A DNA stretch of 47,813 nt from positions 1-47,813 of the forward strand of contig JAJYGF010000008.1 in the NCBI GenBank assembly GCA_021785125.1, written 5' to 3'. A model generated the notes under the pieces. It was not told the DNA's origin, searched no databases, and worked only from the letters and a program-made list of their open reading frames with translations. Origin of the DNA: a bacterium. GTDB taxonomy: Bacteria; Patescibacteriota; Minisyncoccia; Moranbacterales; UBA2206. A program made the position numbers and the translations under genes. Positions 7,627 through 45,205 of the stretch are shown here, in pieces (position 1 is the first letter of the stretch; each line of letters starts with the position of its first letter).

Positions 7627-8742
7627 ACTCTCAAACTTTATTACCACGATTTCCGGCGTCGCGTCCGTGCGCATCGTCGGCCCCCATGTGCCGACGCCGG
7701 CCGAAGTGTATATTGAAAAGTTTCCGTCCTGGTTCAGGCCGTAATAATATCTGCCGTATATCAGCCGGTCGATGAAGCTGATCGGGAAAAGCTGGCCCTT
7801 GTGCGTGTGGCCGGCCAGCATCAGACTCACACCGGCCGCTTCCGCCTGTTTGACCGCATCCGGATTGTGATACAAAAGGATACTTGGCTGATTCCTGTCA
7901 AATCCGGGCAAATTATCCACGACATTGACAATATTTTTCTTTTCCATCCTTTGCGGATAACCAATGCCGATGATCTGCATGCCGTCGATGCTGGTCATTT
8001 TATCATCCAAGATTTTGACTCGGGTTTTTTGGAGTGCGCCCAGAGCTTCATCCACACCCAGATATGTCTCATGGTTGCCGGTCACGAAATACATCCCGTC
8101 CGGCGCCTTGATGTCGTCAAGCGGTTTCACCAAAGAATCAAGTTTTCCGTCCATGCCGTCGAAAAGATCGCCGGTAATGAAAACGACATCCGGCTTTGCC
8201 GAATTTATCTGATCCACAACTCCTCTCAAAAAATCGGCGCCCAGTACCAGCCCAAGATGCACGTCCGATATCTGCACGGCCGTCTTGTTCCTCCAGGCCG
8301 ATGGAAGATTTTTTATTTTAATCTCGATATGTTTCAACTTGGGATGATAGGCATTCCATATCCCGCAGCCCGAATACGCAAACGCGATAACAATAGCAAG
8401 AGCAACCAAATATTTTTGATATATGGCCGATCCGGCCGAACCGTAAATCCAAACTAGAGCCCAAACAACCGCAAAAGCCATCACCAGATTCAGAGCGACC
8501 CCCAGCCATATGCCGGATGAAAAATATAAAGTTCTCGTAAGACCGTTCTCGTTATAATGGGCCAGTATCGAAGATGCGATGAAACTGACCGACAGTATCG
8601 CCAATATGACGCCCAGGCACAACTTGGCGTTATTGCCGGTGATTTCAAAAAACTTTATCAAAGAAAAATAGATAAAAAAATGGCCTCCGAACAATATTGC
8701 CAGCAGGACAATCAGAATGATGATCATGAATAAGGCATTCAT
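7618..8742 (-). CDS. Membrane-anchored metallophosphoesterase (calcineurin-like)
   Basis: Four N-terminal TM helices, then ISDVHLG ... GDLFDG ... GNHE ... GHTHKGQ motifs. The 3' end overlaps dnaE by 9 nt (convergent). Confidence 0.8.
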   Translation of the reverse strand: MNALFMIIILIVLLAILFGGHFFIYFSLIKFFEITGNNAKLCLGVILAILSVSFIASSILAHYNENGLTRTLYFSSGIWLGVALNLVMAFAVVWALVWIYGSAGSAIYQKYLVALAIVIAFAYSGCGIWNAYHPKLKHIEIKIKNLPSAWRNKTAVQISDVHLGLVLGADFLRGVVDQINSAKPDVVFITGDLFDGMDGKLDSLVKPLDDIKAPDGMYFVTGNHETYLGVDEALGALQKTRVKILDDKMTSIDGMQIIGIGYPQRMEKKNIVNVVDNLPGFDRNQPSILLYHNPDAVKQAEAAGVSLMLAGHTHKGQLFPISFIDRLIYGRYYYGLNQDGNFSIYTSAGVGTWGPTMRTDATPEIVVIKFESLN

Positions 8743-18888: not shown

Positions 18889-18939
18889 TTCCTCCTCTTT
18901 GTTTGTCCGGGTTTTTAAAGACCTGCTCATATATTCTCC

Positions 18940-31340: not shown

Positions 31341-32348
31341 TTAAATCAACTGGTTACCTACTAGCTCTGCCATCTCCACCAACCTATTAGAATATCCCCA
31401 TTCATTGTCATACCAGCCGACAACTTTCACTAGATTGCCATTAGCCATAGTAAGTGCCAGATCCACGATCGAGCTTCGCGGATCGCCTTTATAATCCATG
31501 GAAACCAGCGGCTCATCCGAAACGCCCAAGACGTTCAAAAGTTCACTTTGTGCCGCATTCTTAAAAGCGGCATTGATTTCTTCGGCAGAAACCTCGCGCT
31601 TTACATTGCAGATGAAATCGGTGATGGAAACAGTCGGGGTCGGGACGCGCAAGGCAATGCCATCCAACTGGCCTTGCAGATGTTTGATAACCTTGCCGAC
31701 TGTCTTGGCCGCGCCGGTCGTGGTCGGAATAATGTTCAAGGCCGCGGCACGGGCGCGGCGCAAATCTTTGTGCGGCAGATCTTGCAAACGTTGATCATTC
31801 GTATATGAATGCGTCGTCGTCATAAAGCCTTTTTCCACCCCGAAATTTTCATCCAACACTTTGATGATCGGCGCCAAGCAATTAGTCGTGCAGGAACCGT
31901 TGGAAATGATGTTCTGACTTTCCGGATCATATTCATGTTCGTTCACGCCGATCAAAAAGACCGGTGTATCGTCTTTCGGCGGCGCGCTCAAGATGACTTT
32001 TTTGGCTCCGGCCAAAAGATGGCTTTGGGCTTTTTCCCGATCGGTAAATATGCCGGTGCATTCCAGCACAATATCCACGTCCAGATCGTGCCACGGCAGG
32101 TTCTGCGGATCTTTTTCCGAGAAATATTTTATCTTTTTTCCATCGACGATAATTTCCGAATTCAGTTCGTCACAAGACACCCCGTGGCCGCTATGGCCAT
32201 AAGAGGAATCATATTTGAAAAGATGCGTGACTGTTTTGATATCGACCAAGTCATTGATAGCCACCACTTCCAGATCATTTTTTGTTAGAGCGATTTTGAG
32301 CGACATGCGCCCGATCCGGCCGAAGCCGTTGATTGCGATGCGTGCCAT
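31341..32348 (-). CDS. gap: Glyceraldehyde-3-phosphate dehydrogenase
   Basis: INGFGRIGR and the SCTTNCLAP active site. Confidence 0.96.
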   Translation of the reverse strand: MARIAINGFGRIGRMSLKIALTKNDLEVVAINDLVDIKTVTHLFKYDSSYGHSGHGVSCDELNSEIIVDGKKIKYFSEKDPQNLPWHDLDVDIVLECTGIFTDREKAQSHLLAGAKKVILSAPPKDDTPVFLIGVNEHEYDPESQNIISNGSCTTNCLAPIIKVLDENFGVEKGFMTTTHSYTNDQRLQDLPHKDLRRARAAALNIIPTTTGAAKTVGKVIKHLQGQLDGIALRVPTPTVSITDFICNVKREVSAEEINAAFKNAAQSELLNVLGVSDEPLVSMDYKGDPRSSIVDLALTMANGNLVKVVGWYDNEWGYSNRLVEMAELVGNQLI

Positions 32349-32375: not shown

Positions 32376-32651
32376 TTATTTTACTCCAATACCGGCTATC
32401 TTCCAATTATCACCTGCCACTTTTTTGATATTAAAAACAGTATTTTCAAGCAAAGTATTATGCGCGATGGATTTCAGACCGAACTCCAGATTCTCGATGC
32501 TGATGTCTTCAGTATGTTCAGGATACCCATCATGCGCCAAAGCGATCGAACCTATTTCCAGATCAACCGAATCAATCTTGGCTAAATTTTTTTCTTTTGC
32601 CGCAGACAATAGCACATCCACTATCTCTTTGGCTAGCATAAAATCATGCAC
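32376..32651 (-). CDS. hypA: HypA-like nickel metallochaperone lacking the zinc-finger module
   Basis: The MHDFMLAKEIVDVLL...KIDSVDLEIGSIA pattern matches the HypA N-terminus (MHE-type Ni site). The 91-aa protein contains no cysteine. Confidence 0.6.
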   Translation of the reverse strand: MHDFMLAKEIVDVLLSAAKEKNLAKIDSVDLEIGSIALAHDGYPEHTEDISIENLEFGLKSIAHNTLLENTVFNIKKVAGDNWKIAGIGVK

Positions 32652-32690
32652 TAATTTTGTCTGCGAAGAATGAGCAGGAACAAAATTGAG

Positions 32691-32803
32691 TGTCCCGCAC
32701 TAACTCGCACTTCTAAATTATTAATACCACTTATATAGCCGTAGGCGAATTCGCACACTAAATAAACAATACCACCAGCTCAATTGGAGTTAGTGCTGGG
32801 ACA
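32691..32803. repeat. 16-bp inverted repeat enclosing about 80 nt between the large-subunit gene and hypA
   Basis: tgtcccgcactaactc (32691-32706) pairs with gagttagtgctgggaca (32787-32803), with one bulged base. The loop contains the palindrome gcgaattcgc. Confidence 0.6.
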
Positions 32804-32809
32804 TAACTC

Positions 32810-34072
32810 CTAATGTACGGCGCAACTTATACAAGGATCGTAAGCCCGAATAAAGCCGCGTAATTTTTTCTGCTTATCCTTATCCTCCAGATCGATTATC
32901 TCTTTGATATAGTCCGCCACGTCATCCTCCAGATTGGCCAAGAATTGCGCGGTCGGAGTGATGATGTTTACGTTTTTCACATAGCCGTTGCCATCGACTT
33001 CGACATGATAATACAATGTACCGCGCGGCGCTTCTACGGCCGCTATGCCGACACCCTCCCGGACCTTGTACTCTTTTGTCACGACATTGTTGAGATCCGC
33101 ATTCAGAAGCTCCTTGATCAACTTGGCCGATTCTTCGATGGAATGAATGACTTCCACTACTTGTCCCCAGATGTTGTGGAACGGATTGTAATCCGGAAAT
33201 TTCAGATTCAAGCTTTCCAGATATTTGGCCGCATTCGATGAAAGTTTATCGCGATTATTGTTGATGCGCGCGATAGCACCGATCATATAACTGTGGCCAG
33301 CGTGGTCAACTTTCTTGATCACTTCGTGCTGTTTCTGCAATTCGTGAAAATCGCTTTCGAATTTTTCCACCGGAATATGCAGACCTTGCGAAGAAATCAC
33401 ATCACCTTCATAGATCGCATATGTTCTGTCTTTGCCAAGACAGACATATTCCGTCCCGCGCGAAAAATCAGGGATTTTTATTTTTCGGAAAAATTCTCCG
33501 AGCGCCAAAGCATCCGCAAGCCTCGCTTCGCTATCCATCAAAATCTTGCGGAGAGCTTCCGCATCCGGCGCCTTTTTGAAGCCGCCGACTTCATTGGTCA
33601 AAGGATGCACCACGCGCCCGCCGATGACCCGCACGATGTCCATGCCGTATTCGCGCAAGCGGATAGCGATTTTCGTCTCCTCCGGATAATTCGTAACCAA
33701 CTGGATGTCATTATCCATGTCCAAAAAATCGGCCAGCGACAAAAAGAAAAGATGCAGCGCGTGCGAATGCACGATCTGACCCAACTCCAAAACGGTACGC
33801 AGTTTCTTGGTTTCCGACGAAACCTCCACTTTCATCGCCGCCTCTAAGGCCTTGATGGACGTCAGATTATGCACCACCGGACAGATCCCGCAAATCCTCT
33901 GCGCAATCGTCGGCATGTCGGCATATTGCCGCCCGATCAGGACACCCTCGATCAGACGGATGCCTTCCTGCACCTCGACCTTGGCCGATCTGACATCGCC
34001 ATTAAGGACGCTGGCCATGAACCCGGCGTGCCCTTCCATCTTGGCTATATGATTTATTTTTATATCCGCCAT
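32810..34072 (-). CDS. [NiFe]-hydrogenase large subunit, group 3 type
   Basis: N-terminal RICGICPVVH and C-terminal DPCISCAVH, with the stop directly after the His. 420 aa. Confidence 0.93.
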   Translation of the reverse strand: MADIKINHIAKMEGHAGFMASVLNGDVRSAKVEVQEGIRLIEGVLIGRQYADMPTIAQRICGICPVVHNLTSIKALEAAMKVEVSSETKKLRTVLELGQIVHSHALHLFFLSLADFLDMDNDIQLVTNYPEETKIAIRLREYGMDIVRVIGGRVVHPLTNEVGGFKKAPDAEALRKILMDSEARLADALALGEFFRKIKIPDFSRGTEYVCLGKDRTYAIYEGDVISSQGLHIPVEKFESDFHELQKQHEVIKKVDHAGHSYMIGAIARINNNRDKLSSNAAKYLESLNLKFPDYNPFHNIWGQVVEVIHSIEESAKLIKELLNADLNNVVTKEYKVREGVGIAAVEAPRGTLYYHVEVDGNGYVKNVNIITPTAQFLANLEDDVADYIKEIIDLEDKDKQKKLRGFIRAYDPCISCAVH

Positions 34073-34084
34073 ATTTGTGTTTGT

Positions 34085-35044
34085 TTAATTTAATTTACAG
34101 ACAGATTTCAATTCCACCATGTCTTCCGCGGTCGGCGCCGGATTTTTCAAGTCCTGATCCTGCATCAAATAATACATGATCGATTTCGGGTTTTGCACGT
34201 GCTGCATGCCGAGCGCATGCCCCAGTTCATGTGCGATGGTCATGCGCAGATCGTCCGCCGCCCTGAATTGATATATATCTATGCCTTGGCTTGGATTGAA
34301 AACACCCTTTTCAAATTCCTGCGAGCCGCCGTACTCACTCTGGAAAGTGGATACTTGGGAATTATAATTGCTTACGATGTTATTTTCCTTGGCCGCGATA
34401 CCGTTGATCTGGTCAGCCAGATGTTTGAGGTCGCTTTCCTCCGACTGCAAATTTTTCAATTCAGAATCGAGATCTTTCCGCTCATGGGTCAATTTGTCGT
34501 ATTCCGGCGGCGGCGCTCCGCCTTGGGCGTTCCATTTGGCCACTTCCTGATCATATGAATCCAGCTTTTTTTGATAATCCGCCAGATTGGATTTGAAATC
34601 GGCCAGGCTTTGGTCATATTTCTGCGTCAATCCGCCGTACTGTTTGTCCAGAGTCGTTTTTTGGACGCTCAAATTTTCAAGGTCCGCGTTCAGCTGGTCT
34701 GCTGCGTCGGATTCCCGCTGTCTTTGGTCATACACCAATTTTATCTGCAGTTTCGCATTTGGATCATACTCCAAAAGCTGTCGGCCGGATGCCTTATTCC
34801 AGATGTCTGCCGCTTGCACCGCGATCGTCTTGACTTGATCTGCCGTAATGTTGAATCGTGGATCCACCGAGCCGATTGCGAATTTGAGTGGACGATTACA
34901 CGGCTTGTCCAGCGCGGCCGGAGCGGCGGACAAAGACAACAAACTCCGGTCTTTCTCGATAAATTTATTAAAAAATATCCAGAATAGTCCAGCCAAAACC
35001 GCCGCGAAAAGCAGCCACAGAAATATTTTTTTCAAAAACTTCAT
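34085..35044 (-). CDS. Membrane-anchored matrixin/metzincin-type zinc metalloprotease with a coiled-coil insert
   Basis: N-terminal TM helix, AHELGHALGMQH (HExxHxxGxxH), then a Met-turn candidate SIMYY. The central region is Q/D/K-rich and coiled-coil-like. Confidence 0.8.
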   Translation of the reverse strand: MKFLKKIFLWLLFAAVLAGLFWIFFNKFIEKDRSLLSLSAAPAALDKPCNRPLKFAIGSVDPRFNITADQVKTIAVQAADIWNKASGRQLLEYDPNAKLQIKLVYDQRQRESDAADQLNADLENLSVQKTTLDKQYGGLTQKYDQSLADFKSNLADYQKKLDSYDQEVAKWNAQGGAPPPEYDKLTHERKDLDSELKNLQSEESDLKHLADQINGIAAKENNIVSNYNSQVSTFQSEYGGSQEFEKGVFNPSQGIDIYQFRAADDLRMTIAHELGHALGMQHVQNPKSIMYYLMQDQDLKNPAPTAEDMVELKSVCKLN

Positions 35045-35049
35045 AATTT

Positions 35050-35823
35050 TTACCCGGCAGATTTCTCTCTGGCTTCAATGTCGTCGCGCAAACCGAATAT
35101 TTCCGCGATGTTTTCGAACTTTTCATCCGGAATCATGTTTTTGAGCGTCGCTCGCATCGCTTTCACATTGCCTTTCGGTCGCAAGCCGCGGCAGCCTTGG
35201 CAAGTCATCCTGGCCGTAGGACAGACCGCGTTGCAGCCGCCCAGAATCATCGGCCCGAAGCACGGTTTCTTTTCCAGGAGCAAGCATTTGTTCCCGGCCG
35301 CCTTGCATTCCACGCACACCGGAGCATCGGGAATGGCCGGAATTCGCCCTTCCAAAAGTTCCGGAATATATTTCAAAAATTCTTCGCCCGAAATCGGACA
35401 ACCCGGAAAAACGAAGTCCACCTTCACGAAATTGTCCAACTCTTTGATCTCCGGATTGCTGATGCCGTTGATATATTTGTAAACATGTTTGATGGTGTTC
35501 GCGCCTTCGTGGTAATTTTTGATCTCCGGCACGCCGCCCATCGCCGCGCAATTGCCGAGCGCCACCAAAAGCTTGCTCCTTTTGCGCAAAGCCGCCAAGG
35601 TCTTCACATTGTCTTCTGTAACGGGATTGCCTTCGACCAAAACCAGATCCAGATCCACTCCAGGATCCTCCTCGTCTTCCAACAAGCGGAAGTCCACCAT
35701 CTCGATCTTCCCGACAAAATCCAGGAATCTTTCGCCCAGATCCAGAAGGGCGAATTGGCAACCCTCGCAGGATGTCAGGCTTGCGATAGCTACTCTGGGC
35801 TTTTTATTTTTGTTTTCTTCCAT
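35050..35823 (-). CDS. [NiFe]-hydrogenase small subunit, group 3 type (delta-like)
   Basis: VAIASLTSCEGCQFALLD, GNCAAMGG, GCPISGEE and C-terminal Cys clusters. Confidence 0.9.
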   Translation of the reverse strand: MEENKNKKPRVAIASLTSCEGCQFALLDLGERFLDFVGKIEMVDFRLLEDEEDPGVDLDLVLVEGNPVTEDNVKTLAALRKRSKLLVALGNCAAMGGVPEIKNYHEGANTIKHVYKYINGISNPEIKELDNFVKVDFVFPGCPISGEEFLKYIPELLEGRIPAIPDAPVCVECKAAGNKCLLLEKKPCFGPMILGGCNAVCPTARMTCQGCRGLRPKGNVKAMRATLKNMIPDEKFENIAEIFGLRDDIEAREKSAG

Positions 35824-35824
35824 A

Positions 35825-35899
35825 GTATTTTAATAGAGTAATCTTAGCACAATTTTGTTTCTTTGAATATCGCCATTTTGGTATTAAAATAGAGTTATG
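35825..35899. promoter_or_regulatory. Direct repeat pair GTATTwwAATAGAGTwAT in the divergent hydrogenase promoter region
   Basis: gtattttaatagagtaatc (35825-35843) and gtattaaaatagagttatg (35881-35899). Confidence 0.3.
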
Positions 35900-35915
35900 A
35901 TATTTTTGTGCACAT

Positions 35916-36320
35916 ATGTCCAAAGTTTGCGTAGGAACAAGCCTTAATCCGATCATCTATAAATGCGACCTTGAGATTCCCAGGCCGGCCATATCAGACG
36001 AGGAAAAGATCGAGGCGCTGATCATGGCAGTCGTATTCACTTCGATCCTGCCCGTATTGATAGCGTATTTCGCGCATTCCGCCATCCCGCACAGATGTTT
36101 CACCCGACTGGACATCCTTTGCACCTTGCCGCTCGGTTATGTCTTGATGTATTTGTCCTCCATAATCCTCTACATTGCCGCGTATGCCAACTTCGGTTTC
36201 CGGTATATCGCGAAAAAAAATTTAAAAACTCCTTCGATACTCATGGTCGTAGCCGTGATTTTTTACCTGATAACTTTCGTCCTTTCTCTTATTCCAGCCC
36301 TTCTCTATAAGGTCACTTAG
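35916..36320 (+). CDS. Membrane protein (134 aa, hypothetical)
   Basis: 3-4 TM segments. Its stop is adjacent to the start of the hypF fragment. Confidence 0.55.
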   Translation: MSKVCVGTSLNPIIYKCDLEIPRPAISDEEKIEALIMAVVFTSILPVLIAYFAHSAIPHRCFTRLDILCTLPLGYVLMYLSSIILYIAAYANFGFRYIAKKNLKTPSILMVVAVIFYLITFVLSLIPALLYKVT

Positions 36321-36321
36321 T

Positions 36322-37464
36322 ATGCACCTGTTTGGATGCGAAATTAAAAATCACAAAAATATCTTGGCCCTGGGCGCGGAATCCAACGGCAATTTTTCTA
36401 TTTTTTGGAATAATATAATTTATTTTTCCGAAGATTTCGGCGATCTGCAAGATAAGTCCAACTTTAAAAAATATAAAAAAGAATTATCAGACTTCATTAA
36501 GAAAAATAAATTTAAACCTGATATTATTTTGTCCGATCTCCATCCGAATTACATCGCAACATATTTTGCGGAAAAATTAGCGAAAAAATACAAAGCCGAA
36601 CATATTCAGGTCCAACATCATATCGCGCATATATTTTCTGCTATTGGAGAAAAATCTCTAGAAACTAAAAGCTATAAGCTAAAAGCTGCGATTGGAATTG
36701 CCTGCGACGGTACCGGATATGGATTAGACGGCAAAATCTGGGGCGGAGAAATTTTTCGAATACGAACTACAAACAACAAACTACAAACTGACAGGATTGG
36801 ATATCTTGAAAATCAAATCCTGCTAGGCGGCGAATTAGCCATTCAAGAACCTGCACGTATGCTGATCAGTATCCTTTCCAGATTCCTGACCAAAAAAGAA
36901 GTTCATGCACATGTAAAAAAATATTATTCGAAACAAGAATTTGAAATTCTATATAACCAATTGCAACAAAATTTCAATTGCCTCGAAACTTCCAGCACCG
37001 GCAGAATCTTGGATGCCGTTTCTTTACTTTTAGGTTTTTGCGAAAATAAAAGAAACTACAAGCATGAAACAATTGATCTCTTAGAAAAAAATTCTACGAA
37101 ACCTTATACGATCAAGCCAGTAGTAAAAAATAATATTCTGATGACCACGCCGCTTTTTGAATATTTGATAAAAAATAGCGACAAAGATAAAAATAGATTG
37201 GCTGCCACCGCCCAATTATATATTGCCAAAGGGTTGTGGACAATAACAGAAAATCACTGCAAAGACATCGGATGTCCAACAAGCAAGAAAAGCAAGAGAC
37301 ATTTGATGTCCAACGTTTTCTTCGCCGGCGGCATCGCCAACAACAAAATTATTTCAAAATATTTAGAATCAAAAGGCGTCTATACAAATAAAAAAATCCC
37401 GCGTGGAGACGCGGGAATCTCTTTTGGACAAATATTGTACCACTTAGCAAATCCTTGGAATTAG
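36322..37464 (+). CDS. hypF: HypF C-terminal (Kae1/ASKHA-like) domain only
   Basis: LALGAESNGNF, SDLHPNYIAT, VQHHIAHIFS, GIACDGTGYGLDGKIWGGE, SSTGRILDAV, FFAGGIANN, GDAGISFGQ. No acylphosphatase, Zn-finger or YrdC-like region is present. Confidence 0.8.
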   Translation: MHLFGCEIKNHKNILALGAESNGNFSIFWNNIIYFSEDFGDLQDKSNFKKYKKELSDFIKKNKFKPDIILSDLHPNYIATYFAEKLAKKYKAEHIQVQHHIAHIFSAIGEKSLETKSYKLKAAIGIACDGTGYGLDGKIWGGEIFRIRTTNNKLQTDRIGYLENQILLGGELAIQEPARMLISILSRFLTKKEVHAHVKKYYSKQEFEILYNQLQQNFNCLETSSTGRILDAVSLLLGFCENKRNYKHETIDLLEKNSTKPYTIKPVVKNNILMTTPLFEYLIKNSDKDKNRLAATAQLYIAKGLWTITENHCKDIGCPTSKKSKRHLMSNVFFAGGIANNKIISKYLESKGVYTNKKIPRGDAGISFGQILYHLANPWN

Positions 37465-38427
37465 CTTGCCTCTCGGCATATCGATCTTTTTCAACCCTCC
37501 GATGCTTGTTTCAAGATAAACGCCCCTGCCTTTTTCCACTCTTCCGATTGTTTTAGCCTCTTTATTAAAACGCTTTAAGGTAGCCAGAACTTTCTTAGCG
37601 TCTTTCTGCGGAACAGTCGCCAAAAATCTTCCTTCCGATGGAAAGGAAAATTTATCGATGCCCAGAAGTCCCGAAAGCGCGGCTGTTTCTTTGGCAAACG
37701 AAAGATTATTTTCCTCCAGCACGATTTTTACTTTCGATTTTTCCGCGATCTCATTCAGAACTTCCGCCGCACCCCCGCGGGTCGGATCTTTGGCAGCTGT
37801 CAGATATTTTGCAACGCTTTGAATCTCTTTGTTTAACGGTTTGCAATCGCTTTTTATTTTGGTCTTGTAATTGAATCTTTTAGCCAAAAGCGCCACCGCG
37901 TGTTCGCCTAAATTGCCAGAAGAAATAACGACATCGCCAGGCATAGCACCATTATTAGAAATAATTTTTCCAGCCAGGCCGATTCCGGATGTCGTAATTT
38001 CAATCTTGTCCAATTTTCCTTTTTCGGTCACTTTCGTGTCGCCCGTCACGATCGGCACACCCGTCTCTCTGGAAACTTTTGAAATGGAGGCGATTATTTT
38101 TTTCAAATCCTCTTCCGGAAATCCCTCCTCGATCACCAGGCTCAAGGAAATGCCGATCGGTTTCGCCCCCATCACTGACAAATCGTTGATTGTTCCGCAC
38201 ATAGCAATCTTGCCGATGTCTCCGCCAGGAAAAAAGATCGGATCCACAATAAAAGCATCGGTCGTAAAAACCAGCTTTTTTTTACCCAATTCATATGAAG
38301 CTCCGTCGTCTTCAAGATTCTTCCATTTGGATGGAATTTTGAAATTTTTTCGAATATCCGAAATCAAACCGTTGGATTTTTCTCCGCCGGCTCCAGCCTC
38401 CAGTTCAATTGTTTTATCCCGTGTCAT
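37444..38427 (-). CDS. hypE: Hydrogenase maturation protein HypE
   Basis: AIR-synthase-like fold motifs and the C-terminal PRIC. The start is set at MTRDKT. The 3' end overlaps the convergent hypF fragment by 21 nt. Confidence 0.93.
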   Translation of the reverse strand: MTRDKTIELEAGAGGEKSNGLISDIRKNFKIPSKWKNLEDDGASYELGKKKLVFTTDAFIVDPIFFPGGDIGKIAMCGTINDLSVMGAKPIGISLSLVIEEGFPEEDLKKIIASISKVSRETGVPIVTGDTKVTEKGKLDKIEITTSGIGLAGKIISNNGAMPGDVVISSGNLGEHAVALLAKRFNYKTKIKSDCKPLNKEIQSVAKYLTAAKDPTRGGAAEVLNEIAEKSKVKIVLEENNLSFAKETAALSGLLGIDKFSFPSEGRFLATVPQKDAKKVLATLKRFNKEAKTIGRVEKGRGVYLETSIGGLKKIDMPRGKLIPRIC

Positions 38428-38428
38428 A

Positions 38429-39457
38429 TTATTTTCTATTATAACGATACTCCACATTGCATGAGCCTTCCACCGAAACCATGCACGCTCCTTGCGGCTT
38501 GTCCGGCGTACAGACCTTGCCGAAAAGCGGACAGTCTTTCGATTCGATCAGTCCTTGCAGGACGAGCCCGCACTTGCAAGCGCTCGGCTTGGGTTTTATT
38601 TCTTGCCTTATTTTTTTAATTAAATCTCTATACACAAATTCCGCATCCTGTTTCTGATATTTTTTTCGGATCTTCAGGCCCGAACCCCTGATCTCACCCA
38701 AACCTCTCCATTTTGCGTCCGCGATTTCAAAAACTTCTTCGATCAATTTTCTGGCTTTGGGATTGCCAGCTTTTTTAACCAGGCGCGTGTAGGCATTTTC
38801 CACCCTGGCTTCGCCGGACAAAATCTGGTCCAAAAGCATGTTGATCGCCAAAAGAACATCCTCGCCCTCAAAACCGGCAATCACCTGCGGAAGCCTGAAT
38901 TGTTTGTATGGCTCCATACCGATGATCGAACTGACATGGCCCGGATCGATGAATCCGTCCACTTTGATATCCTTATTCGCCAGAAGCGCGGCCATGGCTG
39001 GCGGAAAAATCTTATGTGCCGAATAAACAATCAGGCCCTCCTTGACCGCCCAGGCCGTCATGCCGGCCGTTGTTTCAAAGCCCAACCCGAAGAAAACTAA
39101 GCCCGGTTTTTGTTTCCGCATCTCGACCGCTTCCGTGATATCATACATCACCTGGACATCCGCCCCATTTCTTCCGGCTTCTTCCAAGCTCATCAGGTTG
39201 CCGGGCACATTGATTGTATCGCCGTAAATCGCGATGGGAATTCCTTCCAAAGCCAAGCCAACTACGATATCGATGTCACTCTGATCCGTCACGCACACCG
39301 GACAGCCCGGACCGGAAACCAGCTTGATATTCTTCGGCATCAAACTTTTTATCCCGTGCTCCGCGATCGTCTGCGAGTGCGTGCCGCACAGTTCCATGAA
39401 GCGCAGCGGACGTCCGATCTTTTTAGCCTTCTCATTGATTTCCGAAATCAAGCTCAT
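38429..39457 (-). CDS. hypD: Hydrogenase maturation protein HypD
   Basis: MELCGTHS, GPGCPVCV, FETT and PGHVS motifs. Confidence 0.95.
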   Translation of the reverse strand: MSLISEINEKAKKIGRPLRFMELCGTHSQTIAEHGIKSLMPKNIKLVSGPGCPVCVTDQSDIDIVVGLALEGIPIAIYGDTINVPGNLMSLEEAGRNGADVQVMYDITEAVEMRKQKPGLVFFGLGFETTAGMTAWAVKEGLIVYSAHKIFPPAMAALLANKDIKVDGFIDPGHVSSIIGMEPYKQFRLPQVIAGFEGEDVLLAINMLLDQILSGEARVENAYTRLVKKAGNPKARKLIEEVFEIADAKWRGLGEIRGSGLKIRKKYQKQDAEFVYRDLIKKIRQEIKPKPSACKCGLVLQGLIESKDCPLFGKVCTPDKPQGACMVSVEGSCNVEYRYNRK

Positions 39458-39660
39458 TTATTTTCTGCCAAATACCGATTAACATCATTGGCATGATCCA
39501 CATCCATCTTCTCGATGGCAAAACCGGCATGCACCATGACAAAATCCCCGACTTTCACGTCTACCATGGAAATATTGATCTCCTTTTTGATGCCATTGTA
39601 ATCAATTTCCGCCATTTGGCCGTTAACTTTAAGTATTTTCCCCGGAATGGCTAAGCACAT
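39454..39660 (-). CDS. hypC: Hydrogenase maturation chaperone HypC
   Basis: MCLAIPGKILKV N-terminus, 68 aa, and a 4-nt overlap with hypD. Confidence 0.9.
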   Translation of the reverse strand: MCLAIPGKILKVNGQMAEIDYNGIKKEINISMVDVKVGDFVMVHAGFAIEKMDVDHANDVNRYLAENK

Positions 39661-39690
39661 AAAGTAAGTCTAAATTTAAAATTTAAAATT
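39661..39690. repeat. Short AT-rich heptamer-type spacer (E6)
   Basis: aaagtaagtctaaatttaaaatttaaaatt supplies the last codons (NFKF) and the stop of the upstream gene. Confidence 0.55.
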
Positions 39691-41121
39691 CCGCGATTGT
39701 CCTCCGCCATTCACGCATCCGCCCGGACAAACCATGCCTTCGATGATTTTCGTCTCAATCCTGCTCTTGGACAAGTTATTTAAAATATTTTTTATCTGTT
39801 CGATGCCGTCCGCCACGACATATTTGGCTTTGGTTTTTTTGGCCAAGATCTCAGCCGCGCCGCCGGTTCTAATGATGTTCTTTGCAGATTTGCCGTTCAA
39901 AAGGAGCTTAGCTCCTGGAGGAGCTAAGCTCCTAACAAGTTCATTATTAAAATCAGTTTGCTTTATATCTGCCAATTTTATATTTTTTTGACGAATTATA
40001 CGTCCTAACTCCCTAACGGTAATAACATAATCCAAATTTTCGCTTTTAGAAACTTTCTTGGCCGTGCAAGAGGAGATGGAAATCACCGCGATATCATCCG
40101 GATTTATCTTCTGCTCACGCGCATAATCCCGCTTGATATGCTCCGCCATGATTTCATCCGGATTGGCGACATTCAGAATATTTTCGACAAATTGCGGATA
40201 ATATTTTTGGATATACAGATTCAGAGACGGACAATGGCCGAGGATAATATTTTTGCCAGGACTGTCTTTTATCTTTTTCTCCATCTGTTCCAACATCAGT
40301 TCCATCCCGAACCCCAGATCAAAAACTTTTTCAAAGCCGATCGCCTGCAAAACTCCGACTATCTTTTCTTTTGAATCCATCTCTTCTTGTTCAAATGCCA
40401 CACTTTCCAAGATCGCCGGATCAACCAAAGCCACGGCCATCTTTTTCAGATCATCCAGCTCCCCGATGATTTTCGGCAGATCATTTTTGTCCGTAATCGC
40501 TCCCACCGGACAATCTTTCACGCACTGGCCGCAAAAGATGCAATCCAGCGGTTTTTCATACGGCGTTCCGACCACGACATCGCCCGCCCGATTGTTGAAC
40601 CCGAATTCTTTGGTCGGGCAGACATTGATGCAGCGCCGGCATTCCACGCACAGTTCCGTCGTCCGGGAGATGGCCGGGTTGCCCTCGTCCACCACCACGC
40701 GTAGACGATTATCCTTCAAAAGATCCAGCTCTTCGCCGATCGTCAGCTCTTCTTTTCTCGGCACGAAATGGAAATTTTCAATTTTATATTCTTCCGCCAG
40801 ATCCTGTAATTCGCATTTTCGGTTTTTCTTGCAGGTCACGCATTTTCCGGCATGGTCGGACCACAAAAGTTCCAGATTTATCCTGCGAGCCCGGGAAACT
40901 TCTTCACTTTCGGTCGCAATCTCCATCCCATCGGAAACCTGCTTGTTGCAAGAAGTGATCAACTTTCCATTTTGTTCTACTACGCAAATTCGGCACAATC
41001 CCTCATGAAAATCTTTGAGACTGCAAAGCGTCGGGATCTTGATTCTGTTTTTCTGGCAGACTTGATAGATCGTTTCTCCCGCCCGCGCTTCGTATTCTTG
41101 GTTGTTTATCTTTATTTTCAT
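39676..41121 (-). CDS. Fe-S subunit of HydA/HoxU type: N-terminal 2Fe-2S plus 4Fe-4S domains fused to a shortened [FeFe]-hydrogenase H-domain-like region
   Basis: The N-terminal Cys pattern (CxxC...C), the CVTCKKNRKC, CVECRRCINVCP and CIFCGQCVKDCP clusters. H-cluster-motif equivalents are LGHCPSL, ISSCTAKK and GMVCPGGCVNGGGQ. Confidence 0.75.
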   Translation of the reverse strand: MKIKINNQEYEARAGETIYQVCQKNRIKIPTLCSLKDFHEGLCRICVVEQNGKLITSCNKQVSDGMEIATESEEVSRARRINLELLWSDHAGKCVTCKKNRKCELQDLAEEYKIENFHFVPRKEELTIGEELDLLKDNRLRVVVDEGNPAISRTTELCVECRRCINVCPTKEFGFNNRAGDVVVGTPYEKPLDCIFCGQCVKDCPVGAITDKNDLPKIIGELDDLKKMAVALVDPAILESVAFEQEEMDSKEKIVGVLQAIGFEKVFDLGFGMELMLEQMEKKIKDSPGKNIILGHCPSLNLYIQKYYPQFVENILNVANPDEIMAEHIKRDYAREQKINPDDIAVISISSCTAKKVSKSENLDYVITVRELGRIIRQKNIKLADIKQTDFNNELVRSLAPPGAKLLLNGKSAKNIIRTGGAAEILAKKTKAKYVVADGIEQIKNILNNLSKSRIETKIIEGMVCPGGCVNGGGQSRNFKF

Positions 41122-42362
41122 TTGGATAATTTATAAATCTCCTTCGGAAAATATTGCAGCGCATCACCAAATGCCGTGGCCGCGAATTTGCCGAGCGGAC
41201 AGAAAGTCGTATTATTCAAAGTCCACAAAATATCTTCTATAGCCGCTTTGTCACGATCGGAAATTTCCCCGTCCCGCAGGCGTTTGGCAATTTCCCACAA
41301 TCGGAAAGTACCTTCACGGCACGGCACGCATTTGCCGCAGGATTCTCTTCGGAAAAAACTCGCCCAAGACAAAAGCAGTTCATGGATATCCGCCATTTTA
41401 TCGACCACGAGAATCGCACCTGAGCCCAACGGAATTTTAGCTTCACGATCGTATTCCAATTTCATCTCCAAATCTTTTTCCAATGCCAGTCTTCCGGATG
41501 AGCCGCCGACCTGCGCGAACCAAAACTCTTTTCCCGCATATATGCCGCCACCATAATTGTCGATCAATTCCTTCAGAGTTATCCCCAACGGGGCTTCGAC
41601 AACATCCCTATTTTTGACCGCGCCGTCCAGAATAAATAGTTTCGTGCCGGGAGATTTTTTCGATCCGACCTTGGCGAATTCCGCGCCGCCGTTTTCAATT
41701 ATCCATGGAATATTGGCGATCGTTTCCGCATTGTTCACCGCCGTCGGCTTACCGAATAATCCTGATTGAGTAGGGAATGGGGGACGCATCCTCGGCTCTC
41801 CCCTTTTTCCTTCGATCGAATTGATGAGCGCCGTTTCTTCGCCGCAGATGTACGCGCCAGCACCTTCAAAAATCTCGATTTCCAATCCATATCTCGAATG
41901 CAAAATTGCCGGACCCAAAAAAACTTTCTGCTTCGCTTGCCCAACCGCCCTTTCCAAAATTTCCGCCGACTTTTTGTAATTTCCGTTGATGTAGATAAAA
42001 GCTTTCTTGGCACCGACAATGAGCGAAGCGATAATGATGCCTTCGATCAGCATATGCGGGTCATTTTCCGCGATCATCCGGTCTTTGTATGTCCCCGGCT
42101 CGGATTCATCCAGATTGCAAATGAAATATTTTTCTGTCACTTTTTCTTTTTGCACCGATTCCAATTTCAAACCAGTCGGAAAACCGGCTCCCCCGCGGCC
42201 GCAAAGGCCGGAGGTTTTTATTTCTTCCACGGCAATTTCAGGATCCATCTCCTTGATAAACTTGAAAAGCGCTTGATAACCGCCGGCTGCGATGTATTCA
42301 TCGATACTCTGTGGATTTATCCGGCCCCAATTCTGGGTGATGATTTTTATTTCAGTTTCCAT
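41118..42362 (-). CDS. NuoF/HoxF/HydB-like NADH-binding flavoprotein subunit
   Basis: GRGGAGFPTGLK (FMN), GEETALINSIEG and ESCGKCVPCREG (4Fe-4S). It is 414 aa, the core only. Confidence 0.9.
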   Translation of the reverse strand: METEIKIITQNWGRINPQSIDEYIAAGGYQALFKFIKEMDPEIAVEEIKTSGLCGRGGAGFPTGLKLESVQKEKVTEKYFICNLDESEPGTYKDRMIAENDPHMLIEGIIIASLIVGAKKAFIYINGNYKKSAEILERAVGQAKQKVFLGPAILHSRYGLEIEIFEGAGAYICGEETALINSIEGKRGEPRMRPPFPTQSGLFGKPTAVNNAETIANIPWIIENGGAEFAKVGSKKSPGTKLFILDGAVKNRDVVEAPLGITLKELIDNYGGGIYAGKEFWFAQVGGSSGRLALEKDLEMKLEYDREAKIPLGSGAILVVDKMADIHELLLSWASFFRRESCGKCVPCREGTFRLWEIAKRLRDGEISDRDKAAIEDILWTLNNTTFCPLGKFAATAFGDALQYFPKEIYKLSK

Positions 42363-42374
42363 TTAGAAAGTGAA

Positions 42375-42457
42375 GGGTATTTTTATTTTCAGGCTAATTG
42401 CAAAAATATAAATAGAGTTTTTATACTTATCAATTCCGGCTGAAAATAAAAATATCC
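42375..42457. repeat. 18-bp AT-rich inverted repeat between the nuoE-like and nuoF-like genes
   Basis: gggtatttttattttcag (42375-42392) pairs with ctgaaaataaaaatatcc (42440-42457), with one G:T pair. The 47-nt loop contains aatagagt. Confidence 0.7.
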
Positions 42458-42469
42458 TGAACAAAAATA

Positions 42470-42916
42470 TCAAACATAATTCCTGAGAATATCATCCACA
42501 TCATTCGGCGCAACTCTGGCAAAAACATTGCCGTTCACCACCACAACCGGACCGCTGCCACACTGGCCCAAACAACTGATGATTTCCAATTTGACTTTCG
42601 GATTGAACATGTCGCCCGCTTTGATATGCAACTGATTTTCGATCTCGCGTATGACTCTATTGGCGCTCTTAATCGCGCAATTCGCGCCGGAACAGACTTG
42701 GATGACTAGGGGCGGATCTTTTTGGGTCTTGACCAGATCATAAAAACTGGCCGTTTCAAAAACTTCGGATAACGGCAGAGAAAAATAATCCGCTATTTTT
42801 TGCGCGTCCTCTTTCGCCACATGGCCGAATCTGGCGCTTATTTTTTTCAGCACCGGCAATAAATTTTTCGTCTCCGGATCGAATTCCAAAAGAATTTTCT
42901 CGGTTGTGACATTCAT
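42470..42916 (-). CDS. NuoE/HoxE/HydC-like thioredoxin-fold 2Fe-2S subunit
   Basis: VCSGANCAIKS ... ISCLGQCGSGPVVVVNG. Confidence 0.88.
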   Translation of the reverse strand: MNVTTEKILLEFDPETKNLLPVLKKISARFGHVAKEDAQKIADYFSLPLSEVFETASFYDLVKTQKDPPLVIQVCSGANCAIKSANRVIREIENQLHIKAGDMFNPKVKLEIISCLGQCGSGPVVVVNGNVFARVAPNDVDDILRNYV

Positions 42917-42943: not shown

Positions 42944-42980
42944 AGCGAAGATATTCCACTCCGCCCAGATCCGCTTCGCT
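42944..42980 (-). terminator. Hairpin after fba
   Basis: On the minus strand: agcgaag...cttcgct (7-bp stem, long loop) followed by ttttatttt. Confidence 0.4.
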
Positions 42981-43842
42981 ATATCCGGCCCACACTTCCA
43001 AAAAGATTCATTTTGTGCTTGACGCTCTCTTTCACCGCCTCGCGCGCCTCGCCCAAAATTGTTCTGATATCAAATCCGGGATCACTTTGCCCCTTGAAAG
43101 TCGCGCTCAAGCTGTTCACGAACGCCATCCTGGTATTGGTATCAACATTAAAACAGCTCACGCCTCGCTTGATCGCCTCAGTCGCTTTGCCATCCTCCCA
43201 ATCCGACGCTCCGTGCAAAACGATGGGCACATCGACAATTTCACGTATCTTGCTCAACCTATCCCAATCCGGCACTTCTCTCTCTATGAAAAACCCATGC
43301 GCGTTGCCGATAGCCACCGCCAACGTATCGATGCCGGTCTTTTCAACAAAATCCTTGGCTTGCTCCGGATCGGTCATGTACTTATCCCAATCCACGGCGC
43401 CCATCTTATGTTCGAACAAGTATGGCACATTGCCCAATTCGCCCTGGACAGGAATCCCTTTTTCATGGCAGAAATCGACGACTTCTTTGGTCACCATGAC
43501 ATTATCCTCGTAATTTTTGCGCGAACCGTCGTACATGACGGAATTGAATCCGATGGTGACCGCTCTTTTGACTATTTCAAAACTTTTGCCGTGGTCCAGG
43601 TGGATCGCGACCGGAACTTCCGGCGCATAGAATTCCACGTCGTTCTTCACGATGTTATACAGCATGCGGCCGCCGGCGTATTCCATGGTCTTCTCCGTGA
43701 TCTGGATGACGACCGGAGACTTGGTCTCTTTGGCCGCTTCGACGATCGCCCGGGTCGTTTCCATATTGGTGGTATTGAAGGCGCCGACCGCATAGCCGCC
43801 CGCCTTGGCTTTTTCCAGAATTTCTTTGACGCTGACAATCAT
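42979..43842 (-). CDS. fba: Class II fructose-bisphosphate aldolase
   Basis: GYAVGAFN, HLDHG and LHGASD motifs. Confidence 0.95.
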   Translation of the reverse strand: MIVSVKEILEKAKAGGYAVGAFNTTNMETTRAIVEAAKETKSPVVIQITEKTMEYAGGRMLYNIVKNDVEFYAPEVPVAIHLDHGKSFEIVKRAVTIGFNSVMYDGSRKNYEDNVMVTKEVVDFCHEKGIPVQGELGNVPYLFEHKMGAVDWDKYMTDPEQAKDFVEKTGIDTLAVAIGNAHGFFIEREVPDWDRLSKIREIVDVPIVLHGASDWEDGKATEAIKRGVSCFNVDTNTRMAFVNSLSATFKGQSDPGFDIRTILGEAREAVKESVKHKMNLFGSVGRI

Positions 43843-43846
43843 ATGC

Positions 43847-43967
43847 TTAAAAATTTTAAAGTCTAAATTTTAAATTTAAAATGAAATCTAAATGATTAAA
43901 TTTTAAATATTTGTAACTTAGGAATTTAAAATTGATTTAAAATTTATAATTTAAAATTAAAAATTTC
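43847..43967. repeat. AT-rich dispersed intergenic element, long copy E4
   Basis: ...aaatgaaatctaaatgattaaattttaaat...aatttaaaattgatttaaaatttataatttaaaatt... Its right end provides the last codons and the stop of tpiA. Confidence 0.7.
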
Positions 43968-44721
43968 CGTTTATTATTTCCGCGATTTTCACAAAGCTAT
44001 GCGGCACCAAACTCTCTTTTCCCACCAAAGCCCCGTCCATACCGGAATCGACGCAAGTCTCTTTCGCATTGGAAGGCGCCACCGATCCTCCGTATATGAT
44101 CATCGCTCTTTCGGCGGTCTTCAAGCCGTATTCTCCCGCTAGAAATTTCTTTATAAGCAGTCTGGCGCTCATTATTTCGTTCGTTGTCGGAAGATGATCG
44201 GGATTGTTCGAGCTGATGGCCCATACCGGCTCGTAACAAACTATGATACTTTCTATTTTTACTCTATTTATTCCGGCCAGGCATTCTTTTAATTGCCGCA
44301 TGATAACATTTTCACCGATCTGGTCTTTGTCCTCGCCCACGCATAATATGGGTTTCAGTCCGTTTTTCAAAGCCGCCAGAAGTTTCGCATTTATCGCGGC
44401 ATCGGTCTCACCGGAATATTTTCTTCTTTCGCTGTGGCCCAAAATCACATACTCACAGCCGAAATTCTTGAGCATGGCCGGAGAAATTTCTCCGGTATAC
44501 GAACCTTCGCCTTCAAAAAACATATCTTGCGCGCCAAGCTTGAATTTCTTGTCTTTCATTCCGGCAAAGCCCTCCAGATGCACGAATGGCGGACACAAGA
44601 CAATTTCGGAATAGGAAAGATTCTTGCCATCCAGCTCTTTTTCCATCCATTGCAAATACTTATCCCGCTCCGCCGGACTTTGCAGATTCATCTTGAGATT
44701 GCCTATGACAATTTTTTTCAT
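43957..44721 (-). CDS. tpiA: Triosephosphate isomerase
   Basis: IGNLKMN, GHSERR, YEPVWAI and GGSV motifs. The start is set at MKKIVIGN. Confidence 0.93.
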   Translation of the reverse strand: MKKIVIGNLKMNLQSPAERDKYLQWMEKELDGKNLSYSEIVLCPPFVHLEGFAGMKDKKFKLGAQDMFFEGEGSYTGEISPAMLKNFGCEYVILGHSERRKYSGETDAAINAKLLAALKNGLKPILCVGEDKDQIGENVIMRQLKECLAGINRVKIESIIVCYEPVWAISSNNPDHLPTTNEIMSARLLIKKFLAGEYGLKTAERAMIIYGGSVAPSNAKETCVDSGMDGALVGKESLVPHSFVKIAEIINGNF

Positions 44722-44725
44722 ATCA

Positions 44726-45205
44726 TTACAAATACATGGTGACACCCAACACGATCAGCCCCGAAACCATCGTGCCCAAAAGCAAAAGCGGCAGGGATTT
44801 TTTCAGCGGTATGTCAAAAATGAACGCCGCCAAAGCTCCGGTCATGCCGCCGATAAGCGGAATGGGCGTGGCAGCCAGAATAAAAATTGTCCACGAACCG
44901 TATTTCTGCATTCTTTTATCCGCCCTTTTGCGAGTATGTTCAAACAGCCATTTGAAAAATTTGTCAAAAACAGAAATATGTTTTGAAAGGAATTTGGCTA
45001 TCGGATCAAGAGCCAGAATTATGATTACCATGGCAAAAAAAGTTCCGAAAACAGAATAAAACCAGGACCAGAAAGCGCCTAAGCCGTAAACTTTATACGC
45101 CAGCGGCAAAGCCGCGCGCAGTTCAGTCACCGGAATGGCCGCGATCAAGAATGTCGCCAGCGGCTTTGGAAAATTTGAAAACAGATGGAAAATAAAATCG
45201 TGCAT
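44726..45205 (-). CDS. Small multi-pass membrane protein (COG2426 / small multidrug-export-like)
   Basis: IPVTELRAALPLA motif, 4 TM, 159 aa. Confidence 0.55.
   Translation of the reverse strand: MHDFIFHLFSNFPKPLATFLIAAIPVTELRAALPLAYKVYGLGAFWSWFYSVFGTFFAMVIIILALDPIAKFLSKHISVFDKFFKWLFEHTRKRADKRMQKYGSWTIFILAATPIPLIGGMTGALAAFIFDIPLKKSLPLLLLGTMVSGLIVLGVTMYL

Follow-up and report, generated by a model that had tools for sequence, protein, structure and literature searches.

Contig JAJYGF010000008.1 of NCBI GenBank assembly GCA_021785125.1 (Patescibacteriota, Moranbacterales, UBA2206) carries the small and large subunit genes of a [NiFe] hydrogenase together with a trio of nuoE-, nuoF- and hydA-like genes of the kind that normally accompanies [FeFe] hydrogenases. 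Does this locus encode two hydrogenases or one and, if one, to which type does it belong? We consider it fairly probable that the locus encodes one soluble five-subunit, non-bifurcating, NADH-linked [NiFe] hydrogenase, in which a diaphorase and connector derived from an [FeFe] HydABC enzyme would serve a catalytic pair resembling group 3b. All five subunit genes (the HydA, HydB, HydC, HydS and HydL equivalents) lie inside 10.5 kb, and each encoded subunit is intact and retains its cofactor ligands.

The whole stretch analysed, 47,813 nucleotides (47.8 kb), is termed the window, and absences of genes refer to it unless other loci are named. Profile searches used Pfam on the larger open reading frames (ORFs) and NCBIfam models with curated cut-offs. 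Two sets of relatives were taken from collection scans, one anchored on the [NiFe] large subunit (71 species-level loci) and one on the HydA-like protein (80 metagenome loci), and both were mapped by tblastn. A preliminary description of this DNA, made from the letters alone, had proposed the gene order; every ORF it named was found in its place with the expected domains in the ORF list and Pfam (Table 1).

The [NiFe] pair and the HydABC-type trio

The large subunit motifs RICGICPVVH and DPCISCAVH satisfy the L1 (RxCGxCxxxH) and L2 (DPCxxCxxH) signatures. Its best PDB match was the alpha subunit of Pyrococcus furiosus sulfhydrogenase I (SHI; E=4e-66, 227 bits), which ranked before entries of groups 3a, 3c and 3d; weaker matches were HydL of Acetomicrobium mobile (157 bits), MvhA (155 bits) and HoxH (5xf9_D, 121 bits). 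The best NCBIfam match, sulfhyd_HydA, fell below its equivalog cut-off, and the 3b equivalog cut-offs were missed (248 vs 880 bits). Homologues of the large subunit share 72-93% identity, those with names being almost all Candidatus Moranbacteria or Parcubacteria metagenome-assembled genomes (MAGs), which marks the source as a bacterium of the candidate phyla radiation (CPR), and HydDB had earlier placed a Moranbacteria large subunit in group 3b (PMC5037454). The small subunit was closest to P. furiosus SHI delta (9e15_A, E=2e-35) and aligned with it over all 12 cluster Cys, that is, those of the proximal, medial and distal [4Fe-4S] clusters; its match to the single-cluster HydS of A. mobile was weak (E=2.5e-17). 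By sequence, the catalytic pair thus appears group-3b-like, as the preliminary description had proposed.

The partners that define group 3b were not found. Genes for the beta (Fe-S) and gamma (FAD/NAD(P)) subunits, or for a HoxU-sized subunit, were absent from the window in Pfam searches of the larger ORFs, in line with the preliminary description, and near the catalytic pair in the 71 related loci none of 204 unassigned ORFs (clustered) had a ferredoxin-type CxxCxxCxxxC motif. Another Patescibacteria MAG (locus L074, 3422-5179) encodes a 585-residue fusion of small and large [NiFe] subunits, with 33-34% identity to the window proteins, followed by a glutaredoxin-like gene.

In the HydA-like protein, the N-terminal part has one [2Fe-2S] site, one His-ligated [4Fe-4S] site and two ferredoxin-type [4Fe-4S] sites, and the C-terminal part is a degenerate H-cluster domain. 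The best PDB matches were HydA subunits of trimeric bifurcating [FeFe] hydrogenases (8a6t, 7q4v and 7p5h; E 1e-57 to 1e-65). In L1, GHCPSL stands in place of TSCCPxW; the proton-relay Cys (Cys299 equivalent) is replaced by His and the Trp is gone. In L2, SSCTAKKVS stands in place of MPCxxKxxE; the Met353 equivalent is Ser and the Glu is gone. L3 is kept as MVCPGGCVNGGGQS and, compared with ExMxCxxGCxxGGGQP, is largely preserved (EGMVCPGGCVNGGGQS); the protein ends 5 residues later, and the C-terminal tail of ~65 residues that covers the H-cluster is missing. The protein scored below the cut-offs of TIGR02512 (175.2 vs 405.95 bits) and of its best NCBIfam model, NF040763 ("NADH-dependent [FeFe] hydrogenase, group A6"; 316.9 vs 765). 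A canonical relative (L112) passed TIGR02512 with 494.5 bits and had 744.1 bits with NF040763. No HydE, HydF or HydG gene was found in the window.

Could the HydA-like protein still be an active or sensory [FeFe] hydrogenase, so that the locus holds two hydrogenases? An alignment of 46 sequences showed no variation at the four Cys ligands of [4Fe-4S]H (C297, C352, C465 and C469), and the equivalents of Lys358, Met497 and GGGQ are kept. In an AlphaFold single-chain model, the predicted local distance difference test (pLDDT) score of the H-domain (residues 220-475) was mostly 81-96 with one dip near residue 405, the Fe-S domains (residues 90-210) being of low confidence; the top 50 Foldseek hits of the modelled H-domain were all [FeFe] hydrogenases, CpI and HydA being the most similar. 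The domain is also under purifying selection, as described below. However, the substitutions in L1 and L2, the missing tail, scores far under the cut-offs and the lack of hydE, hydF and hydG all oppose such activity, and in sister lineages the operon persists even though L1, the L2 Cys and L3 are gone from its HydA. We therefore regard an active or sensory [FeFe] enzyme as very improbable, and the possibility raised in the preliminary description, that the trio functions as an independent [FeFe] enzyme, was not borne out. Judged by its motifs, the HydA-like protein is a decayed [FeFe] hydrogenase and cannot be a normal [FeFe] enzyme. The simplest reading of motifs and model is an H-domain that can fold and bind a cubane but has lost the [2Fe] subcluster; in A. 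mobile NiFe-HydA, cluster A5 is reported to be in that state, with the [4Fe-4S] kept and no [2Fe] (PMC8880783). Genes for such proteins carry the public labels 'Fe-only hydrogenase', '[Fe-Fe] hydrogenase large subunit C-terminal domain-containing protein', '2Fe-2S iron-sulfur cluster-binding protein', 'NuoG' and also 'ferredoxin'.

The NuoE-like protein has CxxxxC...CxxxC ligands in its translation and matched the NCBIfam models nuoE_fam and HoxE below cut-off. The NuoF-like protein bears on whether the enzyme bifurcates electrons. The preliminary description had mentioned an electron-bifurcating NiFe-HydABCSL enzyme; this enzyme does exist, in A. mobile (Feng et al. 2022, PMC8880783; PDB 7T2R/7T30), and NiFe-Bfu enzymes have been listed only in Synergistetes and Halorhabdus (Schut et al. 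2022). The five-subunit gene composition of the window is identical to that of this enzyme, which makes H2 from NADH plus reduced ferredoxin, and the closest solved relatives of the NuoF-like subunit are B subunits of Bfu type (9bov_B, 392 bits; 7t2r_B, 384 bits). However, the NuoF-like protein aligns only with residues 117-521 of the 597-residue A. mobile HydB and so lacks the N-terminal [2Fe-2S] domain and the C-terminal domain with two [4Fe-4S] clusters. These cluster domains form the ferredoxin branch and are found in all bifurcating members and not in non-bifurcating homologues (Feng 2022, Schut 2022; PMC8880783, PMC9304861).

The residue pattern of NuoF agreed with its domain content. 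The beta subunits of bifurcating enzymes carry A/E and M within DPGAxMD, the Phe of GAGAF, and GGPSG (Losey 2020). Core-only beta subunits of non-bifurcating NADH-dependent diaphorases carry T/S and K/S/A, the Tyr of GAGAY, and no GGPSG. The window protein has ESEPGTYKDR (T/K for A/M), GAGAY and GGSSG, the non-bifurcating pattern at every Losey position and for all four residue criteria. On 7t2r_B, A202 and M204 have clear counterparts; F182, quoted in Schut 2022, could not be placed, and GAGA(F/Y) served for the Phe/Tyr criterion instead. Two outgroups with long HydB (L151 and L154) carry the bifurcating residues, and the test thus discriminates. The small and large subunits, moreover, belong to a different lineage (3b) from those of A. 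mobile, the small subunit having three clusters, and the C-terminal domain of the HydA-like protein does not align with A. mobile HydA. A bifurcating enzyme of this kind, already disfavoured in the preliminary description, hence retains only a slight probability. From domains and residues, the enzyme is predicted to be non-bifurcating, and the earlier preference for a simple NADH-linked enzyme is strengthened.

The trio among relatives

HydA proteins of the relatives fell into two populations. Those of population A (336-528 residues; N-terminal Fe-S part 60-81% identical to that of the window protein) have H-cluster motifs that are degenerate as in the window, or have L1, the L2 Cys and L3 deleted, giving HoxU-sized forms of ~340 residues. 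Those of population B (548-618 residues; 46-55% identity in the main clade and 34-37% in three distant outgroups) have the canonical motifs TSCCPSW, MPCTSKKYE and EVMACPNGCIGGGGQP. Counted over loci with at least 1.5 kb downstream of hydA, hyp and/or [NiFe] small/large genes follow HydA in 31 of 33 population A loci and in none of 27 canonical population B loci. Upstream, population B has the order GalT-like / Sm_multidrug_ex / tpiA / fba / nuoE / nuoF, common to the window context, and at least one of its members was deposited as Candidatus Moranbacteria. A neighbour-joining tree of NuoF plus the HydA N-domain, which has no support values, placed population A as a monophyletic group nested among canonical [FeFe] trios with shared upstream synteny, the short HydA forms arising at least three times among long forms. 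Almost all CPR NuoF proteins of both populations have the non-bifurcating pattern, two having A/K and some of the canonical ones V/K or N/K; A/M, GAGAF and GGPSG are missing from all surveyed NuoFs of the degenerate clade and of the canonical Moranbacteria type.

Selection was estimated in six pairs. Because dS was saturated in most of them (>1, some undefined), the dN/dS values are rough, and what can be used are the dN ratios and the statement "well below 1". The values were ~0.04-0.19 for nuoE, nuoF and the HydA N-domain, mostly like those of the small and large subunits (0.03-0.13). The H-domain remnant had 0.07-0.13 in five of the six pairs and 0.31 in the divergent pair L089-L090, and its dN was 1.3-2.3 times that of the N-domain. 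The trio is therefore under purifying selection although its HydA has no catalytic site. In this clade the trio has no catalytic output of its own and is linked almost exclusively to [NiFe] genes, as would be expected if it serves the [NiFe] pair. More than 40 species among the loci of the two scans (L001-L157) have all five genes. In several species, moreover, the genes form one contiguous co-directional cluster, nuoE-nuoF-hydA-hypC-X-small-M10-large-dfx-hypA-gap.

Several observations weigh against a single enzyme. In the window, an opposite-strand unit, comprising the ORF of 134 residues and hypF, parts the genes from nuoE to hypE from those running from the small subunit gene to gap; with the strong terminator-like hairpin at the hypE/hypF junction, this makes the two halves separate transcription units that are not co-transcribed here. 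In the large-subunit set, 40 loci extend at least 9 kb upstream; the trio was present in 15 of them and missing from 25, and in 10 of these 25 it is truly absent from the syntenic site, since fba is adjacent. Trio-less assemblies include JBAYLE01, PFCG01 and CAVZKT01. At least 10 related species have the small/large pair, together with hypA and gap, but no trio at this site, and thus the pair apparently can persist without the module in cis. Conversely, in L094 (6526-12954) tpiA-fba-nuoE-nuoF is followed by two inserted ORFs, a degenerate HydA of 473 residues and then directly by dfx-gap, and no hyp, small or large gene was found on that contig. Reduction of protons by NADH is endergonic unless H2 is kept very low. 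The small subunit is of the three-cluster delta type, which normally docks on a beta subunit; its A. mobile counterpart, which docks on HydA, has a single cluster (PMC8880783).

These observations, the energetic one aside, also speak for an explanation in which the two halves are independent systems, the small/large pair using another acceptor (ferredoxin or desulfoferrodoxin) and the trio being a separate NADH:acceptor oxidoreductase or an [FeFe] relic. A gene for desulfoferrodoxin (dfx; a 2Fe superoxide reductase of 124 residues) lies between the large subunit gene and hypA in ~50 related loci (for example L001, 11283-11657, and L079, 10191-10562), and its product may be an alternative electron acceptor for the pair in species without the trio. 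However, dfx is missing from the window, where a 158-bp gap (32652-32809) occupies its place, and no other partner gene was found there; no other Fe-S or flavin partner was found in the trio-less loci either. Look-ups of P0181 and P0152 for a trio elsewhere in trio-less genomes returned only further trio-containing compact loci. The distribution of degenerate and canonical HydA, the purifying selection on a trio with no catalytic site of its own, and the compact co-directional clusters also argue against two systems. We judge independent systems to be unlikely, though not negligible, and continue to favour one NADH-linked [NiFe] enzyme.

Layout, maturation and neighbouring genes

The locus is bracketed by glycolytic genes, as the preliminary description had pointed out, with gap on one side and fba and tpiA on the other; gap adjoins the hydrogenase genes in most related loci on the tblastn map. 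The nuoF stop and the hydA-like start overlap by 4 bp, and hypC begins 15 bp 3' of the hydA-like gene, an adjacency that is kept in relatives. The hairpin between hypE and hypF, which is a consensus match only, would close a transcription unit running from nuoE to hypE. A promoter scan of the window gave 34 matches vs 21.9 +/- 5.1 expected, and neither half had a convincing promoter.

Table 1. Features of the hydrogenase locus and its glycolytic flanks, in order of transcription of the minus strand
Feature	Position	Strand	Assignment and remarks
tpiA	43957-44745	-	PF00121/PF01116 assignments of the tpiA-fba pair (Pfam); upstream glycolysis flank
fba	42979-43842	-	Pfam (PF01116/PF00121 for the fba-tpiA pair); upstream glycolysis flank
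NuoE/HydC/HoxE-like thioredoxin-fold [2Fe-2S] subunit, 148 residues	42470-42916	-	PF01257, E=1e-30
NuoF/HydB-like FMN/NADH subunit with one [4Fe-4S], 414 residues	41118-42362	-	PF01512 and PF10589 only
HydA-derived Fe-S connector, 481 residues	39676-41121	-	Fer2_4, NADH-G_4Fe-4S_3, two 4Fe-4S motifs, Fe_hyd_lg_C
hypC	39454-39660	-	PF01455, E=2.5e-25; [NiFe] maturation chaperone
hypD	38429-39457	-	PF01924, E=2.5e-121
hypE	37444-38457	-	AIRS and AIRS_C
Terminator-like hairpin, bidirectional	37397-37416	.	Convergent hypE/hypF junction; 8-bp stem with 6 GC pairs, then TTTTTTTATT on the minus strand
Short HypF, Kae1-like carbamoyltransferase half, 380 residues	36322-37464	+	PF17788 and PF22521
Hydrophobic ORF, 134 residues	35916-36320	+	Divergent from the small subunit gene; no Pfam/NCBIfam match
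[NiFe] small subunit, group-3b delta type, 257 residues	35050-35823	-	PF01058
Metzincin-like membrane-anchored protease	34085-35044	-	PF00413, E=2e-9; HELGHALGMQH; N-terminal hydrophobic helix
[NiFe] large subunit, group-3b-like, 420 residues	32810-34072	-	PF00374; RICGICPVVH and C-terminal DPCISCAVH
HypA-like Ni-binding domain, 91 residues	32376-32651	-	PF01155, 31 bits, profile positions 1-69 of 112
gap (GAPDH)	31341-32348	-	Gp_dh_N and Gp_dh_C; glycolysis flank, NADH source

The gene convergent with hypE had been called a hypF fragment. The convergent gene is there, but it is not debris: it spans positions 387-739 of the 741 in TIGR00143, without the acylphosphatase, Zn-finger and YrdC-like domains, and this short HypF is conserved in relatives; wherever a related locus was found to have it, the gene runs opposite to the hydrogenase genes, with 42-71% identity in the metagenome set. 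The HypA-like protein starts with MHD, resembling the Ni-binding MHE motif, and has no cysteine; the Zn site (CxxC...CxxC) is therefore missing. A role for this ORF as a rubredoxin-type electron carrier was rejected, given the lack of cysteine and a start like that of HypA. The short form is kept 3' of the large subunit gene in nearly all related loci. No HypB gene was found in the window.

Truncation of HypF and HypA and the lack of HypB, together with a gene content of the neighbourhood that is highly fluid among relatives, might be taken to mean that the locus is a decaying, non-functional leftover in the streamlined genome of a symbiont. However, none of the ORFs is disrupted, dN/dS stays well below 1 in all genes tested, and dozens of species share the truncated forms of HypF and HypA. 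We find a non-functional leftover extremely improbable, and a working enzyme is the reading kept below.

Between the small and large subunit genes, co-oriented and with gaps of 5 bp and 12 bp, lies a gene that had been listed simply as a protease. Its place was correct, and the product is a membrane-anchored metzincin with a long coiled-coil region; a function as hydrogenase endopeptidase of HycI/HoxW type was rejected, as the protein belongs to PF00413 and the large subunit has no extension to cleave. The large subunit stops at the His of DPCISCAVH and thus needs no processing protease. The metzincin gene occupies the same position in ~30 related loci, with a PDDEXK_3 gene or nothing there in others, and has no obvious link to hydrogenase function. 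The hydrophobic ORF of 134 residues gave no tblastn match in 75 related loci and probably lies outside the hydrogenase system.

Other genes occur at these positions in relatives. Compact loci without hypD, hypE and hypF in cis, with or without the trio, have between hypC and the small subunit gene a gene for a protein of 226-239 residues with no Pfam family (L156, 11633-12334; L003, 7612-8331; L065, 7731-8435; and others), which is not in the window. A pair of DUF6390 and EamA genes takes the hypC-small position in L025, L043, L049 and L088. In L024 (PFCG01000030.1, Moranbacteria CG10_big_fil_rev_8_21_14_0_10_35_21), two [FeFe] maturase genes (5416-6693 and 6722-8155) stand directly 5' of [NiFe] small/metzincin/large, and the 16-kb locus has no HydA, NuoEF, hypD, hypE or hypF; L021 (7569-8945) offers a further instance. 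The two L024 products are a HypC-HydE fusion (TIGR03956, 295 bits, above the cut-off of 254.6) and a bona fide HydG (TIGR03955, 564 bits, above the cut-off of 312). Fusion of an [FeFe] maturase to a [NiFe] chaperone beside a [NiFe] enzyme suggests, at the level of gene content, an unconventional supply of CO/CN ligands; our literature search found no paper on HypC-HydE or HydG next to [NiFe] genes.

The other window genes are housekeeping genes (dnaE, thrS, miaB, miaA, gatB, thyX, tmk, rplA, rplK, nusG, murD and others), and Rfam and tRNA scans found one tRNA-Ala only. A 187-residue ORF (2033-2596, minus strand) partially matches the IS200-like Y1 transposase (PF01797, positions 63-120 only) and may be a remnant. 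A 471-residue ORF (17515-18930, minus strand) has a Thy1 (ThyX) domain at residues 20-235 only, its C-terminal half having no assignment, and overlaps the start of the thymidylate kinase ORF by ~100 bp.

Proposed enzyme, its origin and its known counterparts

From the gene content, motif states and comparative association described above, we infer physical assembly of the five subunits, an electron path, NADH as the specific donor and a physiological direction. NADH would be oxidised at the flavin mononucleotide (FMN) of the NuoF-like subunit, with the NuoE-like [2Fe-2S] protein as its usual side partner. Electrons would pass from the [4Fe-4S] of NuoF to the four N-terminal Fe-S clusters of the HydA-derived subunit, acting as a connector like HoxU or NuoG, and the [4Fe-4S] in the former H-cluster domain may join the chain. 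They would then reach the [NiFe] site through the 3b-type small subunit with its three clusters, and H2 would be made or consumed there. The likely physiological direction would be towards H2, with NADH from glycolysis being disposed of in this way when the partial pressure of H2 is low. Running towards H2 only when its partial pressure is very low would fit a dependence on H2-consuming partners.

How does this enzyme relate to those already described? NiFe-HydABCSL of A. mobile is similar in that its HydA has no working H-cluster, its HydB and HydC resemble NuoF and NuoE, and a [NiFe] small/large pair completes it; it has a plain [4Fe-4S] at the former H-cluster position, for which the four Cys ligands are likewise kept in the window protein. 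The window enzyme differs in its core-only HydB with non-bifurcating residues, in a small subunit with three clusters rather than one, and in a large subunit that scores higher with SHI alpha than with A. mobile HydL. Its HydA matches true [FeFe] HydA over the full length, whereas the alignment with A. mobile NiFe-HydA covers the N-terminal 200 residues only. These differences point to an independent, convergent origin, which we consider probable from the sequences.

Group 3d enzymes (HoxEFUYH of Synechocystis; Hydrogenophilus thermoluteolus 5XF9) are similar in function: a diaphorase of NuoE/NuoF/NuoG-N type feeds a soluble [NiFe] dimer, probably in the same non-bifurcating, NAD(H)-linked manner, and the truncated HydA variants of the relatives are essentially the size of HoxU. 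However, the window pair is not HoxYH, as the low HoxH score indicates, and HoxY has one cluster. The window connector derives from [FeFe] HydA (HoxU model 112 vs cut-off 333; HoxE 85 vs 224), and the window has neither a HoxW endopeptidase nor a C-terminal extension on the large subunit. The resemblance to group 3d is thus functional and does not mean membership.

Enzymes of group 3b (P. furiosus SHI, HydADBG / HyhLSBG) have the large and small subunits nearest to those of the window in sequence, length and cluster Cys, but their defining beta and gamma subunits are missing from the window and from the 71 related neighbourhoods. Non-bifurcating NADH-dependent [FeFe] HydABC enzymes share with the window a beta subunit that shows every non-bifurcating feature of Losey and the group A6 affinity of HydA; at this genomic position, other Moranbacteria-labelled MAGs have canonical relatives whose H-cluster motifs are intact and whose NuoF is likewise core-only. 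The window locus differs from them in a decayed H-cluster site, with a [NiFe] pair and hyp genes instead. The window enzyme lacks defining features of each of group 3b, group 3d, Bfu and [FeFe] group A. Most likely, the arrangement is like NiFe-HydABCSL in composition and works like HoxEFUYH, with a 3b-like catalytic pair.

The origin may be pictured as follows. The starting point would be a non-bifurcating NADH-dependent [FeFe] HydABC enzyme encoded beside tpiA-fba; a 3b-type [NiFe] pair and hyp genes would then have been acquired, after which the H-cluster site of HydA would have decayed. A wider and more tentative proposal, which we put at somewhat less than an even chance, is that a HydABC scaffold here received a [NiFe] catalyst for a second time, independently and with the intermediates still present, and that the old H-cluster [4Fe-4S] became the junction to the distal cluster of the small subunit. 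Such wiring would differ from that of A. mobile, in which the small subunit feeds cluster A3. The tpiA-fba-nuoE-nuoF-hydA locus would then exist in four states within one CPR lineage: a canonical NADH-dependent [FeFe] enzyme; an enzyme with the [NiFe] pair added and the H-domain serving as [4Fe-4S] holder, as in the window; one with HydA reduced to HoxU size; and loci from which the trio has been lost.

The 3b hydrogenases of Berkelbacteria and Moranbacteria have been described as having a P. furiosus-like, possibly bifurcating arrangement (Valentin-Alvarado 2024, PMC10811913), in an account that does not mention the NuoE/NuoF/HydA-like module. We found no paper describing the present arrangement in CPR bacteria, in a literature search that was incomplete and is not proof of absence. 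If the proposed enzyme is correct, the current label of the pair as a P. furiosus-like or bifurcating 3b enzyme (PMC10811913) would change, CPR metabolic reconstructions would assign a single non-bifurcating NADH:H2 enzyme, and gene annotations would be corrected. The enzyme would be a minimal, ferredoxin-independent counterpart to NiFe-HydABCSL that helps to separate the elements needed for bifurcation. The locus would also record a complete swap of an [FeFe] for a [NiFe] catalytic centre on a conserved NADH-oxidising scaffold of which living intermediates remain, a rare natural case in which a scaffold was kept while its catalyst for making hydrogen was exchanged.

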